A stretch of 64,000 bases of DNA, taken from positions 55,614,001 to 55,678,000 of the forward strand of contig CM069144.1 in the NCBI GenBank assembly GCA_035221665.1, given 5' to 3'. The position numbers were made by a program, and so were the translations under genes. This document shows positions 49,560-57,267 of the stretch, piece after piece. Under the pieces are notes generated by a model. The model worked only from the letters and a program-made list of their open reading frames with translations, made no database searches and was not told where the DNA came from. The stretch's first letter is position 1. Each line of letters opens with the position of its first letter. This DNA is from Okamejei kenojei (taxonomy: Eukaryota).

Positions 49560-49782
49560 TATTCAGGACATTGGAGGTAATTCCTTTAGTTCTTTTTTAA
49601 GGAAGTGCCATAGAATATTCCGCGCACATCTGATGGGAGTGAGCGAGGTTCCAGATGAATGGTTCACTTGAAAGATGACATCTCTGATAACTTGGTCAGT
49701 CACTGCAGTTGCAGTCCACATTTTTCATTCTTACTCATGTGAGTGAGACATGAACCCACACCCTCATCTGAGGCACAGCTGA
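49560..49782 (-). mobile_element. Ancient Deu-SINE (SacSINE-like) relic
   Basis: CAGGACATTGG...AGTGCCATAGAAT...GAAAGATGACATCTCTGA...TGAACCCACA...CACAGCTGACA resembles the reverse Deu domain and tRNA head. Confidence 0.6.
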
Positions 49783-49787
49783 CAATA

Positions 49788-49919
49788 CAGTCTGAAGAAC
49801 GGTCTCGTCCCGAAAAGTCACCCATTCCTTCTCTCCAGAGATGCTGCCTGTCCCGCTGAGTTACTCCAGGTTTTTAGGTCTATCTTTGGTTTAAACCAGC
49901 ACCTGCCGATCCTTTCTAC
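49788..49919 (+). mobile_element. Solo Penelope pseudo-LTR with 13-bp TSD
   Basis: TSD ACAATACAGTCTG at 49782-49794 and 49920-49932, overlapping the element start by microhomology. Confidence 0.88.
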
Positions 49920-50189
49920 ACAATACAGTCTGCTTATTCTGCTGACGATATCCCTTTGGGGAGGGCACACTCCCCATGTTTTTTCTCATAGTTAATACAT
50001 TGCGGATCTTCCTCCACTTTATGTCCTTGGCACATTTTATGATATTGATCTTTCATCTCATTGCTCTGTAATTGTGTCAATACTGAAGGAACTGTTTTGT
50101 GTAACTTGCAGTGTTCTGCTTTGTTCCAGGTCCTTTGCTGTTCTGGCCATTTCAATCCATTGCAGGTTACTGCATTTTCATATTTAAAG

Positions 50190-50830
50190 AGTCATAGTCA
50201 TAGTTATACAGTATGGAAACAGGCCCTCTGGCCAAACTTGCCCATGCCAAATGAGCTCAATCTATATTAGTCTCACCTGTCCGTGCTAGGCCCTTAAAGC
50301 CCTGTCCCACGGTACGTGTTCATTCCAAGAGCTCTCCCATGTTTAAAAAAAAATCAAACTCGTGGTAAGCACGGAGAATGAACGTAGCGGGTACGTCGGA
50401 GCTCGGGGACGTCTCTTAGTGCTAACGGCAGGTACTCGGGAAGACTCGCTAACAGCAGGTAAGCACGGGAAGACTCATGAAGATTTTTCAACATGATGAA
50501 AAATGTCCACGAGAGCCCCGAGTACTGACGAGTGGCCATTACCGTAAATCTCCGAGTTCGAATCAGGGCAAACTCGGGAGAACTCTTGGAATGAACTCGT
50601 ACCGTTGGACAGGGCTATTATTCCTCTAAACCTATCTTATCCATGCACCCTTCTAAATGTTTCTTAAATGTTGCAACAGTACTTGCCATAACTACCTCCT
50701 CCAGCAGCTTGTTCCATACACCCACAACCCTCTGTGCCCCCCCAAACCCTTTAAACCTATGTCCTCAGGTGCTCGATTCTCCTTACTCTAGGCATTTACC
50801 CAATATATTCCTCTCATGATTTTGTTCATG
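50190..50830 (-). mobile_element. CR1 3' tail fragment hosting a MITE
   Basis: (GTCATA)n tail and GGAAACAGGCCC; resumes TTCCTCTAAACCTATC after the MITE. Confidence 0.8.
50297..50617. mobile_element. PIF/Harbinger-type MITE (complete)
   Basis: ~42-bp TIRs AAGCCCTGTCCCACGGTACGTGTTCATTCCAAGAGCTCTCCC and GGGAGAACTCTTGGAATGAACTCGTACCGTTGGACAGGGCTA; 3-bp TTA TSD (50294-50296, 50618-50620). Confidence 0.9.
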
Positions 50831-51206
50831 ATCCAATTACACTGAAAACATTCCTGAACTTTGAATAAAATAAGCAGCAACCTTTTTAACCTTTATTTCA
50901 TTTAAGTTGTTTCTAAATCTAGTTTTATGTCACCAACCACTGTTGTTTTGGGAGTGTATTTGCCTTTGCATCGAAGTGTAATAGTAAGATTAAACGAGAA
51001 CTTACCAATTCGAAGTTTGATCCTTATTTTATGAGGAGTTACGATGAGGGATTACGTGAAGAAGTCCCGCCGGAGCGCATGCTTATCGTACTTCAAAGCC
51101 GCGGCGTGAAAACACAGAAACTCAATAGCCGAAGTAACAGAGTAAGGTTTTTAGAAGACTAGAACTACCAGATGATCCTTTCGATTATGAGGGTGGGAGC
51201 GGAGGG

Positions 51207-51319
51207 CATGTAATCCCTCATCGTAACTCCTCATAAAATAAGGATCAAACTTCGAACTGGTAAGTTCTCGTTTAATCTTACTATTTTACTTCGGAGTCAC
51301 GTGAGTGACTACGTGAAGA
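51207..51319. repeat. DIRS internal complementary region (ICR)
   Basis: 51207-51285 is the inverse of 50980-51058, and 51283-51319 is the inverse of 55623-55659, i.e. the circle junction. Confidence 0.93.
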
Positions 51320-53985: not shown

Positions 53986-54155
53986 NNNNNNNNNNNNNNN
54001 NNNNNNNNNNNNNNNNNNNNNNNNNNNNNNNNNNNNNNNNNNNNNNNNNNNNNNNNNNNNNNNNNNNNNNNNNNNNNNNNNNNNNNNNNNNNNNNNNNNN
54101 NNNNNNNNNNNNNNNNNNNNNNNNNNNNNNNNNNNNNNNNNNNNNNNNNNNNNNN
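53986..54155. other. Assembly gap (N run) inside the DIRS element
   Basis: Run of n characters. Confidence 1.
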
Positions 54156-54394
54156 TGCAGCCTTAATTCATGCGCCCTCATGATAAGCTCCTTTAGAGCG
54201 ATGCACAGTAAACAGATGTTTGATAAGTGAATTTTTTATTTATTTTTTATTTTTCCCATTATGAAGTCCTGGAACTGGTGAGGACCATTAATTTGCTGGC
54301 CAGATTGTCATCCCTGACTTCACCGGTATGGTAAATTGCTAACCATATCCTGGAGCGTGGCTCTTGTGATTTGGTGTATGCACATAAGCAGTGA

Positions 54395-55095
54395 CACCAC
54401 TTCAGGGTCAGCATTCTACTGCCCTGGCTCTCCCGGCTGATGCTCACGGGAGGTCACACACACGGCCCTAAACGAGGTGCTGGTGTGATGGGTCCCCAAA
54501 CTTCAGGGTCAGCATCCTACTGCCCTGGCTCTCGTGGCTGATGCTCACAGGAGGTCACACACAGCCCTAACAAGGTGCTGCTGTGCTGGGTCCCCATGTC
54601 GTGGCTCTCCCGGCTGATGCTCACGGGAGGTCACCACTTCAGGGTCAGATTTATACTGCCCTGCTCCTGCTTACAGGAGGTCATACACATATCCCTGCCA
54701 ACAGGTGCTTGTGGCGCGGCACTCCCGTAGGCCTGCACTGTGAAATGTTTGGTGTCAGCAACCCATTGACCCGAACTGGTCTGCCCTTTACCACCGGGAG
54801 ACCTTGAGCAGCCCTCTCGTAGTTGCTGCTGGCACGGCTCTCCCGTAGGCCGGCATTTTCACACATGAAGCAGCCCTATCCCCCAGGCGCTGCTAGCGCG
54901 GCTCTCCGTAGGCCAGCGCTGTGACAGATACGGCGTCAGTTGAACACTGACCCGTCCTGGTCTCCCCCTCCAGCAGGGAGACCTTGAGCAACCATGTCCT
55001 AGGCGCTGCTGGCGCAGCCTGTCCCATAGGCCGGTGCTTTTTACATGAAGCAGCCCTGTCCTAGGCGCTGCTGGCGCGGCCTGTCCCATAGGCCC
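54395..55095. repeat. GC-rich imperfect tandem repeats in the DIRS 5'/gag-like region
   Basis: About three copies of CTTCAGGGTCAGCAT..TACTGCCCTGGCTCTC...GGAGGTCACACAC, then about five of GCTGCTGGCGCGGCTCTCCCGTAGGCC. Confidence 0.8.
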
Positions 55096-55844
55096 TCGCT
55101 ATTATAGTGGAGTCTCACTAATTTGGTTGTGTGAATTTGTAAAGGGTGAAAATACTCTTATTATCGAAGAGGAACTCTTGCAGCCTGACTCACCCGAGTT
55201 CTAATAGGGCTGCACAAGTTCTCTCTCCCTCCAATTTTAATCCATGCCAGGGGCAACGTGTCTGTGAGTCGCTGACCGACTGTCAGCGATTCTAGCAATA
55301 TTTAAACGGCATCCCCGCAGGCTGGAAGCCACTGACTGCTTTGTCAGCGGCTGTTATCAGGAAACCCAATCTTTTGCCGGCTATCCGCTTCAGCAGTCGG
55401 TCCGGGGTTTCCCCGCAGCCCATAGCCGGCTTAGGCATCGGACCTCCAATAAATCCGGCAGGAAACCTCTGAAAAGAGAGGCTCCTGCTCGGATACACAA
55501 TGCTGGTAAGTAAAAACACTTACCTTCTAGGTTTAAACTTACCGCCGGCAGGAGCGTTGCCCCGCCAGTCCGGTGCTTGCCAATGCGCTGACATAATGAC
55601 AAGCATGCGCTCTGGCGGGACCTCTTCACGTAGTCACTCACGTGACTCCAAAGTAAAATTGAGCAACAGGTTTCATTTTTTCTTTAGCTTCAGTTGTTCT
55701 TCATTTGTTTGAATATTTATCTTCTTCCCACCTTGTGGTAAACATATTTATCCAATAATAATTTAACTTCACCCAGCCACAAAAATGCCAAAACTGCTGC
55801 TTCCTTCCTGATTGATCAACACAAACTATCAGAGTTTGCCAATG

Positions 55845-56167
55845 GGTACACAAAATGCTGGAGAAACTCAGCGGGTGCAGCAGCATCTATGGAGCGAAGG
55901 AGATAGGCAACGTTTCGGGCCAAAACCCTTCTTCAGACTGATGGGGGTTGGGGGGAGGCGGGGGGGAAGAAAGGAAAAAGGAGGAGGAGGAGCCCGAGGG
56001 CTGAGGGAGAGGTAGGAAGGGGAGGAGACAGCAAGGGTTAACAGAATTGAGAGAATTCGATGTTCATGCCAAGAGGATGCAGACTCCCCAAGTGGAATAT
56101 GAGGTGCTGTTCCTCCAATTTGCGGTGCCACTCGATTTTTTCAGCATCTGCAGTTCCTTCTTTAACA
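55845..56167 (-). mobile_element. Penelope 3' fragment with GIY-YIG C-terminus, hammerhead motif, inverted tail and 15-bp TSD
   Basis: Minus strand HRKLEEQHLIFHLG.LHPLGMNIEFSQFC*; CTGAAGAAGGGTTTTGGCCCGAAACGTT; TSD CAGAGTTTGCCAATG at 55830-55844 and 56168-56182. Confidence 0.92.
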
Positions 56168-56812
56168 CAGAGTTTGCCAATGATTGTACTGTGCTATCAA
56201 GCGGGATGGTGGGGCCTAGTGGAGGTTGCTTGCAATAGCTGGGGTTGCTGGGTTTACATGTTATTCCATCTCGTCTTTCGGAATACCAACAGCTATGGCC
56301 AGCTTATGTTGGAGGCAGGGGAAAGACCAGGAAAAGAAATGAGTCCCTTGCTTCATTGAGCAGAGGCCTGTCACTGCAGCAAAACAATAGGCTGTGCACA
56401 GAATCCATTGCATGGGGAATATGCAGGACCTGGCCACGAGCAACTTTGTGAGTCTTAATTCAAGACCCAGTTTTCCGTGACTTCTCAATCCCTTGGCACA
56501 TCATGTACACCCAACAACCGGCATTGGCTTATTTTACAGCGAATGATGTCCACTTAGAATATTTATTTGCCTCTTTACAAGCATCTCTTTAGTTATATTA
56601 TTTGGATTAAATGTTTCCAGCATCTTGGTCCACCTCAGTTGTCACACCCGTTGAAGAAGTATTCCCCATCCCACTGCCAACACAACTCTGCTGTGAGAAG
56701 TGAATTGATTCAACACCACATATTCATTTTGTTTCCTCAATCTATTCCCTTTATTTTCTAAAGCTCACCTATTCGAAGTAAAAGACGGAAAAGGCAATGC
56801 CAATCTGTTGAG

Positions 56813-57267
56813 TGTGTACGAAGGAACTGCAGATGCTGGTTTAAACCGAAGATAGACACTAAACAGTTCCTTCAGTATTGCTACAATTACAGAGCAATGA
56901 GATAGATGAAAGATCAATATCATAAAATGTGCCAAGGATTTAAAGTGGAGGATGATCCGCAATTTATTAACTATGAGAAAAAACATGGGGAGTGTGTCCT
57001 TCCCAAAGGGACATCATCAGCAGAATAATCAGACTGTATTATGTAGGAAGAAACTGCAGATGCTGGTTTAAACCAAAGATAGACACAAAAAGCTGGAGTA
57101 ACTCAGCAGAACAGGCAGCTTCTCTGGAGAGAAGGAATGAGTGACGTTTTAGGTCAAGACCCTTCATCAGACTGAAGAAAGGTTTCGACTCGAAAAGTCA
57201 CCCATTTCTTCTCCCCAGAGATGCTGCCTGTCCCACGGAGTTAATCCAGCATTTTGTGTCTATCTTC
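56813..57267. mobile_element. Composite Penelope insertion carrying a copy of local flanking DNA
   Basis: Tail (56813-56860), inverted copy of 49921-50098 (56861-57040), then an inverted pseudo-LTR pair (57041-57267). Confidence 0.85.

Follow-up and report, generated by a model that had tools for sequence, protein, structure and literature searches.

How does host DNA that lies beside one retrotransposon remnant come to stand, inverted, inside a neighboring one? The question is raised by a stretch of 64,000 nucleotides of Okamejei kenojei (contig CM069144.1 of assembly GCA_035221665.1, positions 55,614,001 to 55,678,000, forward strand; here called the window), in which a non-coding piece of about 180 bases has been copied from beside one such remnant into another about 7 kb away. 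A first-pass annotation, made from the letters, had explained this by a reverse transcriptase (RT) that started on a tail and jumped by microhomology to a read-through transcript of the neighboring copy. The layout that it described is for the most part real; for the route, repair of DNA is slightly favored below.

The two copies and their junctions

Local alignment of positions 49788-50102 (+) with 57174-56856 (-) gave 88.7% identity over 319 columns, which bears out the proposed inverted duplication. For the non-repeat part (49921-50098 against 57040-56861) our recount agrees with the earlier one: 11 letters are substituted, and copy 2 has 4 nt inserted. The adjacent pseudo-LTR (pLTR) was copied along with it as claimed, but the coordinates given for it were 2 nt off: the partner of copy 1 is 57174-57041, with 20 substitutions in 134. 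Within the window, a BLAST search with 49921-50110 returned the query itself, 56856-57040 (E 3e-72) and one 13-nt chance match, and nothing else.

Table 1. Features of the duplication and of the DNA between its copies (positions in the window)
Feature	Positions	Strand	Basis or remark
Copy 1 TSD, left half	49782..49794	+	First six letters (outside the element) absent from copy 2
Copy 1, solo Penelope-like pLTR: 100-nt body and 34-nt tail	49788..49921	+	Aligns with the window's other family arms; 13-nt TSD
Copy 1 TSD, right half; the copied flank starts here	49920..49932	+	TSD search
Copied non-repeat host flank, 3' end TTTTGTGT (50095-50102)	49922..50102	+	BLAST, alignment
Decayed DIRS-like element, contains a 170-N gap	50972..55659	-	Inverted repeats
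Separate Penelope-like insertion: pLTR, ORF 3' end, inverted tail, 15-nt TSD	55830..56182	-	Connects the family with a GIY-YIG-type ORF end
Copy 2 terminal tail, unit positions ~85-134, near the family majority	56813..56863	-	Family alignment; contig overlap
Copy 2 captured flank, inverted copy of 49922-50102	56856..57040	-	BLAST, alignment, public contigs
Copy 2 arm 1, full pLTR and tail; tail-to-flank junction as in copy 1	57041..57174	-	BLAST, alignment
Copy 2 arm 2, inverted tailless pLTR	57168..57267	+	Family alignment, folding, contigs

Copy 1 is the donor, as had been proposed from its own 13-nt TSD; both halves of the TSD were found, nine of the 13 letters being the element's own end letters too. 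Copy 2 is an ordinary head-to-head Penelope pLTR pair to which a captured flank and a second tail have been added, the flank and the tail meeting at an 8-nt microhomology. The second tail and the microhomology joint had both been noted at first pass and were found again, the joint being the 8-nt match TTTTGTGT, found unchanged in copy 1 and with a single mismatch in copy 2. Arm 2, which the first-pass annotation does not mention, overlaps arm 1 by 7 nt, as happens in the pair at 38230-38418, and the copy 2 locus folds at z -9.1. No TSD was found around the whole new unit of copy 2 (best 5 nt), one being present at 10 of the 18 other clusters in the window, and neither an intron nor a poly(A) mark is present in the copied tract. 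The result, a duplication of non-coding DNA, is probably neutral.

The event was local, as had been held: donor and copy 2 are separated by 6753 nt (2065 without the DIRS-like element). Since a 170-N gap (53986-54155) falls between the copies, this distance and the relative orientation depend on the scaffold join.

The repeat family and the element between the copies

The repeat appears to be a Penelope-like pLTR, as first assigned, supported by the comparison of arms, a hammerhead core pattern and the tie to an ORF end. Family arms stop near unit position 100 or near 134, i.e., an optional tail is present, and an optional tail of 30-40 nt is a described feature of pLTRs (PMC8557442). The minimal hammerhead core pattern is matched by five family arms vs. 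none in 100 shuffles; in copy 1, arm 1 and arm 2 the core is changed and the pattern unmatched, and Rfam at its gathering score found no hammerhead. Head-to-head pLTR pairs number eight in the window, copy 2 included. In the separate Penelope-like insertion (Table 1) a 33-aa piece (56041-56139) matches the C-end of P0002 at 84%; P0002 shows RVT_1, in an RT part that may be another element's, and a weak GIY-YIG match (E 0.008, below the cut-off). A protein atlas search with the ORF end gave no usable match, and Pfam scans of stop-free frames found no RT of this family in the window. The family is very large, 146,000-171,000 public contigs being aligned per run. When further captures were sought in the window, a flank that matches elsewhere just once, over a long stretch and at high identity, was present in 1 of 19 pLTR clusters.

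The element between the copies, which we take to be DIRS-like from its repeat layout and motifs, has inverted terminal repeats and an internal complementary region (50972-51058/51207-51293, 95%; 51026-51087/55598-55659, 84%; 51283-51319/55623-55659, 97%). It holds only short broken frames, in whose fragments no Pfam match to a tyrosine recombinase or to RT/RNase H was obtained. The two copies had been said to bracket it; they do so by position only, with about 870 and 1200 nt between them and its termini. A role for it in the duplication was rejected because no ends are in common; it is a bystander, and its link to the duplication is incidental.

Routes by which the flank could have been copied

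The explanation that we prefer, giving it about an even chance of being right, is DNA repair inside an existing Penelope pLTR palindrome, started by homology and ended by microhomology (ectopic strand annealing of the DDSA type). An ordinary head-to-head pLTR pair with one tail would have stood at ~56813-57267 beforehand. This palindrome, whose arms could form a strong hairpin, would have broken near unit position 84-87, and the end bearing arm 2 and the beginning of arm 1 would have invaded the nearest same-subfamily copy at 49788. There the donor tail and 180 nt of flank would have been copied; donor and tract are seen in the sequence, and DNA is the presumed template. At TTTTGTGT the new strand would then have come off the donor and paired with the matching 8 nt of the other end, which had kept its own tail, a route suggested by the junction that is seen today.

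Several observations agree with such a course. When positions 84-134 of arm 1 and the flank are taken out, a normal palindrome is left, like the seven other head-to-head pairs of the window. At one end of the tract stands a homologous repeat, the 134-nt pLTR, and at the other the 8-nt match, the combination that characterizes DDSA. A near donor is what a DNA template predicts, so that the short distance calls for no further assumption; among copies of the same subfamily, the one at 49788 is the closest. Divergence is 20/134 between copy 1 and arm 1, 17/99 between arm 1 and arm 2 and 12/177 in the flank, so that divergence in the pLTR arms is roughly double that in the flank, which is expected if the arms predate the capture. 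By Fisher's test the flank differs from the copy 1-arm 1 pair at p 0.024 (0.07 excluding CpG changes) and from the arm 1-arm 2 pair at p 0.013 (0.028 excluding CpG changes), these p values being post hoc and borderline and one of the 17 arm-arm differences being merely the shared center base. The derived states that copy 1 has in common with arm 1 in this comparison, at positions 84 and 100 with none in 1-83, and the absence of the state at position 100 from the copy 2 terminal tail also fit a break near there. Exit matches of at least 8 nt are common (80 of 281 200-nt tiles). Arm divergence and the nearness of the donor slightly favor DNA break repair over the RT jump.

Other observations count against repair. 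Both shared derived states are weak, position 100 being a CpG change in 8 of 15 other arms and position 84 being found in 2 of 24. Position 101, considered as a third shared state, was rejected as a majority-call artefact at a CpG. Copy 1 has six private changes within positions 84-134, a number above what the repair model expects. Normal annealing over the ~50 nt of tail homology would be expected to give a clean repair, so the 8-nt exit must be assumed. In a Poisson fit the repair model is best (-16.7), but all five fitted models lie within 1.4 log units, among them the RT jump of the first-pass annotation (-18.1) and capture from local DNA (-18.0). The predicted allele with the palindrome and without the flank was not observed among the contigs of four runs, and the layout also matches the RT-mediated captures published in PMC3846280.

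DDSA (Fiston-Lavier, 2007, as described in PMC3276153) is a known route for segmental duplications in Drosophila, one case being a 37.5-kb tandem. As in those duplications, a repeat shared by donor and acceptor marks one breakpoint, the adjacent unique DNA is copied and the exit shows microhomology; unlike them, the tract here is 180 nt long and lies within a retroelement palindrome, and the pre-existing acceptor repeat is a postulate.

The next route, possible though somewhat less probable than repair, is a single retrotransposition. Primed at 56812, RT would have gone through the tail and switched at TTTTGTGT to a read-through transcript of copy 1; flank and pLTR would have been copied next, before the usual inverted arm was formed. 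Penelope-like RT starts internally at the tail (PMC11167929), so that a jump is required to obtain the flank. A 10-nt antisense match to the tail (50085-50094, immediately before TTTTGTGT) adjoins the landing site, such a match occurring, by a post hoc count, in 22 of 3964 30-nt tiles. Folding of present-day copy 1 or arm 1 RNA with flank gave a pairing of at most 0.01 between the tail and this motif, and an RNA stem between tail and landing site is unsupported in present-day sequences. That the match stops at the 5' edge of copy 1 would be explained by an internal pLTR promoter, as reported for D. virilis in PMC2377424; but the same edge is the family's usual turning point and therefore says little. 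An RNA template alone does not predict insertion 2-7 kb from the donor, nor does the jump sit well with arms about twice as diverged as the flank. A TSD is lacking, though 8 of 18 other clusters also have none. Pfam scans, which covered 99 of 118 stop-free frames of at least 55 aa from 44000 on and 150 of 204 frames of at least 62 aa before 44000 and left out frames mostly within known repeats, found no host gene to supply a transcript; apart from two RT pieces (36029-36526) they gave one chance match below the cut-off and nothing more.

A more specific form of the RNA route, in which a trans-acting Penelope RT works on nascent read-through RNA of the 134-nt solo pLTR before that RNA has left its locus, starts at the tail, jumps at TTTTGTGT to the flank and inserts within a few kb, we consider unlikely. 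If true, small inverted duplications would keep arising nearby from this very large repeat family, and they would preserve a record of past template jumps by this RT.

Capture of host DNA between Penelope pLTRs has already been published for Adineta vaga (PMC3846280), where trans captures likewise have two direct pLTR pieces around unrelated DNA, an inverted tail-less pLTR at the 5' side and an insert without element ORF. Those cases have full pLTRs, TSDs and one empty site, and no local donor is named in the passages on them; here, by contrast, the 3' pLTR is a ~50-nt remnant, a TSD is absent and a donor is found at a distance of 2-7 kb.

In 3' transduction by L1 a source element and its downstream flank reappear together in a new insertion bounded by the retroelement. 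Here, too, source element and 3' flank were copied together, the tail-flank junction being identical in both copies; unlike in L1 transduction, there is no poly(A) end and no TSD, and the flank is closed by a second tail because this type of RT starts internally at the tail.

Still less probable is capture during insertion. Here the new cDNA end, or a host polymerase, would have left the element RNA at the 8-nt match for genomic DNA close by, taken up the flank from it and gone back to the element RNA at the tail; arms and tail would derive from the master element. It accounts for the short distance and for the little sharing between arm 1 and copy 1, and L1 insertions with nearby genomic DNA templated in are reported in PMC11702581. 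It requires that the landing site happened to be 180 nt downstream of another pLTR that also had the right orientation, a coincidence estimated at a few percent, and leaves the arm-arm divergence unexplained.

Exactly two genome-wide BLAST hits, which the first-pass annotation would have taken as support for transduction, would not separate these models, since the same junctions result when DNA is repaired inside a palindrome already in place. Both candidate routes, Penelope-type host capture and DDSA, are already known, and the locus is a further example. Its value lies in being cleanly testable: the donor, the copied tract and the two junctions can all be read, and repair and RT jump call for different earlier alleles. 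A genome-wide tally of tail-flank-pLTR units would bear on whether Penelope remnants move neighboring DNA via RNA in cis or serve as homology patches for repair, and the former touches on the later steps of Penelope insertion.

Public contigs at the site of copy 2

Public contigs of four runs (organisms A, B, C and D) were aligned to the site of copy 2 only. Organisms A, B and C each have two versions of copy 2. In run X1 one contig equals copy 2 exactly and another has 15 other letters, the number that separates the window's two copies over that span. Summed depth is tens to hundreds over the flank vs. millions over the pLTR. The two versions speak against a high-copy repeat and against assembly doubling; with two copies in the window, the flank is low-copy, as the first-pass annotation required. 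The left-flank contig extends 24-26 nt into the terminal tail in four of four runs and the right-flank contig begins within arm 2 in three of four; no empty site for copy 2 was seen in these runs.

An artefact or other event (assembly doubling, a dispersed repeat or staggered-break inversion of the segment between the copies) is very improbable: the 170-N gap separates the copies and none of the contigs listed for the copy 2 site crosses the tail-flank joint (56860) with 31 nt to either side of it, but organisms A (run X1), B and C carry two versions, flank depth is far below that of the pLTR, and the repeat ends on either side of the gap fit a single DIRS-like element.

The listed joints that skip 225-253 nt were not counted as earlier alleles; they occur in all or most runs, that of organism A included, their sides measure 20-28 nt, and their sources are other copies of the family. 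Organism D (run X13) shows a single flank version at a depth like that of its single-copy neighbors, with the left contig entering the tail; this fits the prediction of the repair model but was set aside as support for it, contigs dropping variants, the records being filtered and the right flank being uncovered. In organism C one contig spans 56941-57081 at a depth of 78 vs. 42-51 alongside, which may reflect collapse or conversion.

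Donor and captured tract

A solo Penelope-like pseudo-LTR (pLTR) and its flank of about 180 nt of non-repeat host DNA (copy 1) recur inverted in copy 2; local alignment within the window matches 49788-50102 (+) to 57174-56856 (-) with 88.7% identity over 319 columns. In the repeat part the copies differ at 20 of 134 positions; the non-repeat part has 11 substitutions and, in copy 2, an insertion of 4 nt, as the first-pass annotation had counted by hand, and BLAST against the window found no third copy of it. Copy 1 is the donor, as had been supposed, since copy 2 has just the downstream half of the 13-nt direct repeat bounding copy 1. 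The copies lie 6753 nt apart (2065 nt when the intervening element is subtracted), one on each side of a 170-N gap. The intervening DIRS-like element has a DIRS-type repeat layout and no Pfam match in the scanned fragments; the suggestion that the duplication is tied to it by bracketing fell, no end being common to both. Over the captured tract neither a Pfam family (in the frames scanned there) nor an Rfam family was found, and no function is indicated. The duplication is a tidy, testable single event.

Features of the window (window positions)
Feature	Position	Remark
Copy 1, pLTR	49788-49921 (+)	
Copy 1, flank	49922-50102	
13-nt direct repeat	49782-49794, 49920-49932	bounds copy 1
DIRS-like element	50972-55659 (-)	between copies
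Copy 2	56813-57267	arm 1 57041-57174, arm 2 57168-57267
Head-to-head pLTR pair	38230-38418	turns at same 7-nt overlap as copy 2
Second arms skipping internal sequence	44327-44346, 62455-62500	
Penelope-like insertion	55830-56182	15-nt TSD
Element with terminal inverted repeats	50298-50616	second copy at 1-264 (window start), 90% identity
Retroelement 3' end, three copies	5238-5605, 16408-17057, 35175-35853	91-93% identity; RVT_1 fragments at 36029-36526
5S rRNA-like sequence	20526-20642	single
Self-inverted sequence	48386-48509	124 nt, 82%

The repeat and the build of copy 2

Judged by its sequence, the 134-nt unit, with 30 arms or pieces in the window, carries the marks that the available text of PMC8557442 and PMC6155905 gives for Penelope-like pLTRs: a minimal hammerhead core (5 of the 30, against 0 in 100 shuffles), an optional 34-nt tail (arms stop near position 100 or 134), head-to-head arm pairs (8 in the window) and, for one arm, a possible GIY-YIG ORF end (the frame upstream of arm 55848-55940 has its last 33 residues in common with the C-terminus of a protein whose own GIY-YIG match is weak). 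The family is very large, with 146,000-171,000 contigs aligned per run; seven further head-to-head pairs lie within 11775-62506, their arms 7-24% apart. In the Penelope-like insertion a pLTR without a tail is combined with the ORF 3' end and a single inverted tail of about 26 nt, a layout indicating that in this family free tails are joined to other pieces during insertion. The predicted C-end of protein P0003, a GPCR in the database, is this ORF end as well; gene prediction probably read through into a repeat of this kind.

In element sense copy 2 opens with an inverted arm that lacks a tail, followed by a full arm with its tail, the 180-nt captured flank and the final ~50 nt of a pLTR with tail. 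The annotation's second tail, joined to the flank by microhomology, was borne out: the joint falls within a match of 8 nt, perfect in copy 1 and altered at one position in copy 2. No target-site duplication (TSD) surrounds copy 2, the sole capture of this type among the window's 19 pLTR clusters; just 10 of the 18 others have one. The two second arms that skip internal sequence resume at this same motif, TTTTGTGT, or just before it; it may be a recurrent joining point, the cases being too few to test.

Routes to copy 2

Both junctions of copy 2 can be read in two directions, as reverse transcription or as repair. We see an even chance that copy 2 arose by DNA repair inside an existing pLTR palindrome, of the duplication-dependent strand annealing type described in the available part of PMC3276153. 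After a break inside the palindrome the broken end would invade copy 1 by pLTR homology, synthesis would run on into the flank, and the new strand would exit at the 8-nt match onto the old tail. Counted in its favor is that such repair predicts a near donor. Counted likewise is that divergence is higher in the arms than in the flank (12/177): copy 1-arm 1 20/134, p = 0.024 (0.07 without CpG changes); arm 1-arm 2 17/99, p = 0.013 (0.028). So are the only derived states common to copy 1 and arm 1, positions 84 and 100 (both weak), the first adjacent to the joint position and the second past it, the exit match of 8 nt on hand in 80 of 281 tiles, and the strong folding of the locus (z = −9.1). Counted against it are six private changes of copy 1 in positions 84-134 and the exit on 8 nt instead of longer tail homology.

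Possible, and less probable, is the jump from tail to read-through transcript that the first-pass annotation had proposed: reverse transcription would begin on the tail, switch at the 8-nt match to the flank of copy 1, run through its pLTR and add the inverted arm. The junctions agree with this as they do with repair; they are shown, as are donor and tract, and what we infer is the type of template, the event order and the earlier allele. The available portions of three papers supply the same layout in host-DNA captures of Adineta vaga (PMC3846280), internal initiation at the tail (PMC11167929) and an internal promoter in the D. virilis pLTR (PMC2377424). Beside the joint, 10 nt match the tail in antisense orientation (22 of 3964 tiles hold such a match; post hoc); in folds of present-day sequences they are unpaired with the tail. 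When five models were fitted roughly, by Poisson, to hand-entered counts without CpG changes, repair with a switch at 84 or before scored −16.7 and whole-copy reverse transcription −18.1, with the other three at −17.6, −17.8 and −18.0, which is not decisive. The bolder reading of cis insertion from nascent solo-pLTR RNA is unlikely. Still more doubtful is DNA-templated capture during insertion, with an L1 precedent in the available text of PMC11702581; supplementary figures on templated insertions in the L1 preprint may be relevant. Any other origin is very improbable.

The architecture has been published before, and so has each of the two candidate mechanisms; in the literature searched, which includes few subscription papers, we found no Penelope capture whose donor was mapped a few kb away.

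Occurrence in other organisms and further elements

Public contigs of 4 of 17 listed runs (organisms A-D) were aligned to 56200-57700 at 88% likeness, and two versions of the tract are present in three organisms. A, which may be the sample behind the window itself, has one contig identical to copy 2 (0 differences, 56909-57067) and another in which 15 letters differ over 56909-57083, as many as separate the two copies of the window there; B has two across 56910-57069 (6 and 13 other letters), C two versions across 56861-56970 (4 and 9), and D one version of the flank. Summed contig depth, which is not copy number, is 20-230 over the flank versus millions over the pLTR; this excludes the flank as a dispersed high-copy repeat and upholds its low-copy status. 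Contigs from the unique left flank enter the tail by 24-26 nt in 4/4 runs and those from the right flank begin within arm 2 in 3/4; among the contigs listed for this region none crosses a junction with 31 nt to its left and right, and none of the four runs showed an empty site. Orthologous flanks differ from A by ~3-5% in B and ~8% in C and D; this puts the capture, diverged by 6.8%, at roughly the age of the split from C.

In C (run X10) a single contig covers 56941-57081, against two each in A and B, and its depth is ~1.7x that of its neighbours; the two copies may have been collapsed, or gene conversion may have acted between them.

The ~320-nt element lies inside a SINE-like repeat; its terminal inverted repeats are 47 nt long (89%), its 3-nt flank is AT-rich, and it resembles a PIF/Harbinger MITE. 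The three retroelement 3' ends, one of them preceded on the minus strand by RVT_1 fragments, are probably a young LINE family, and the 5S rRNA-like sequence, barely over the Rfam gathering score, is probably a pseudogene.
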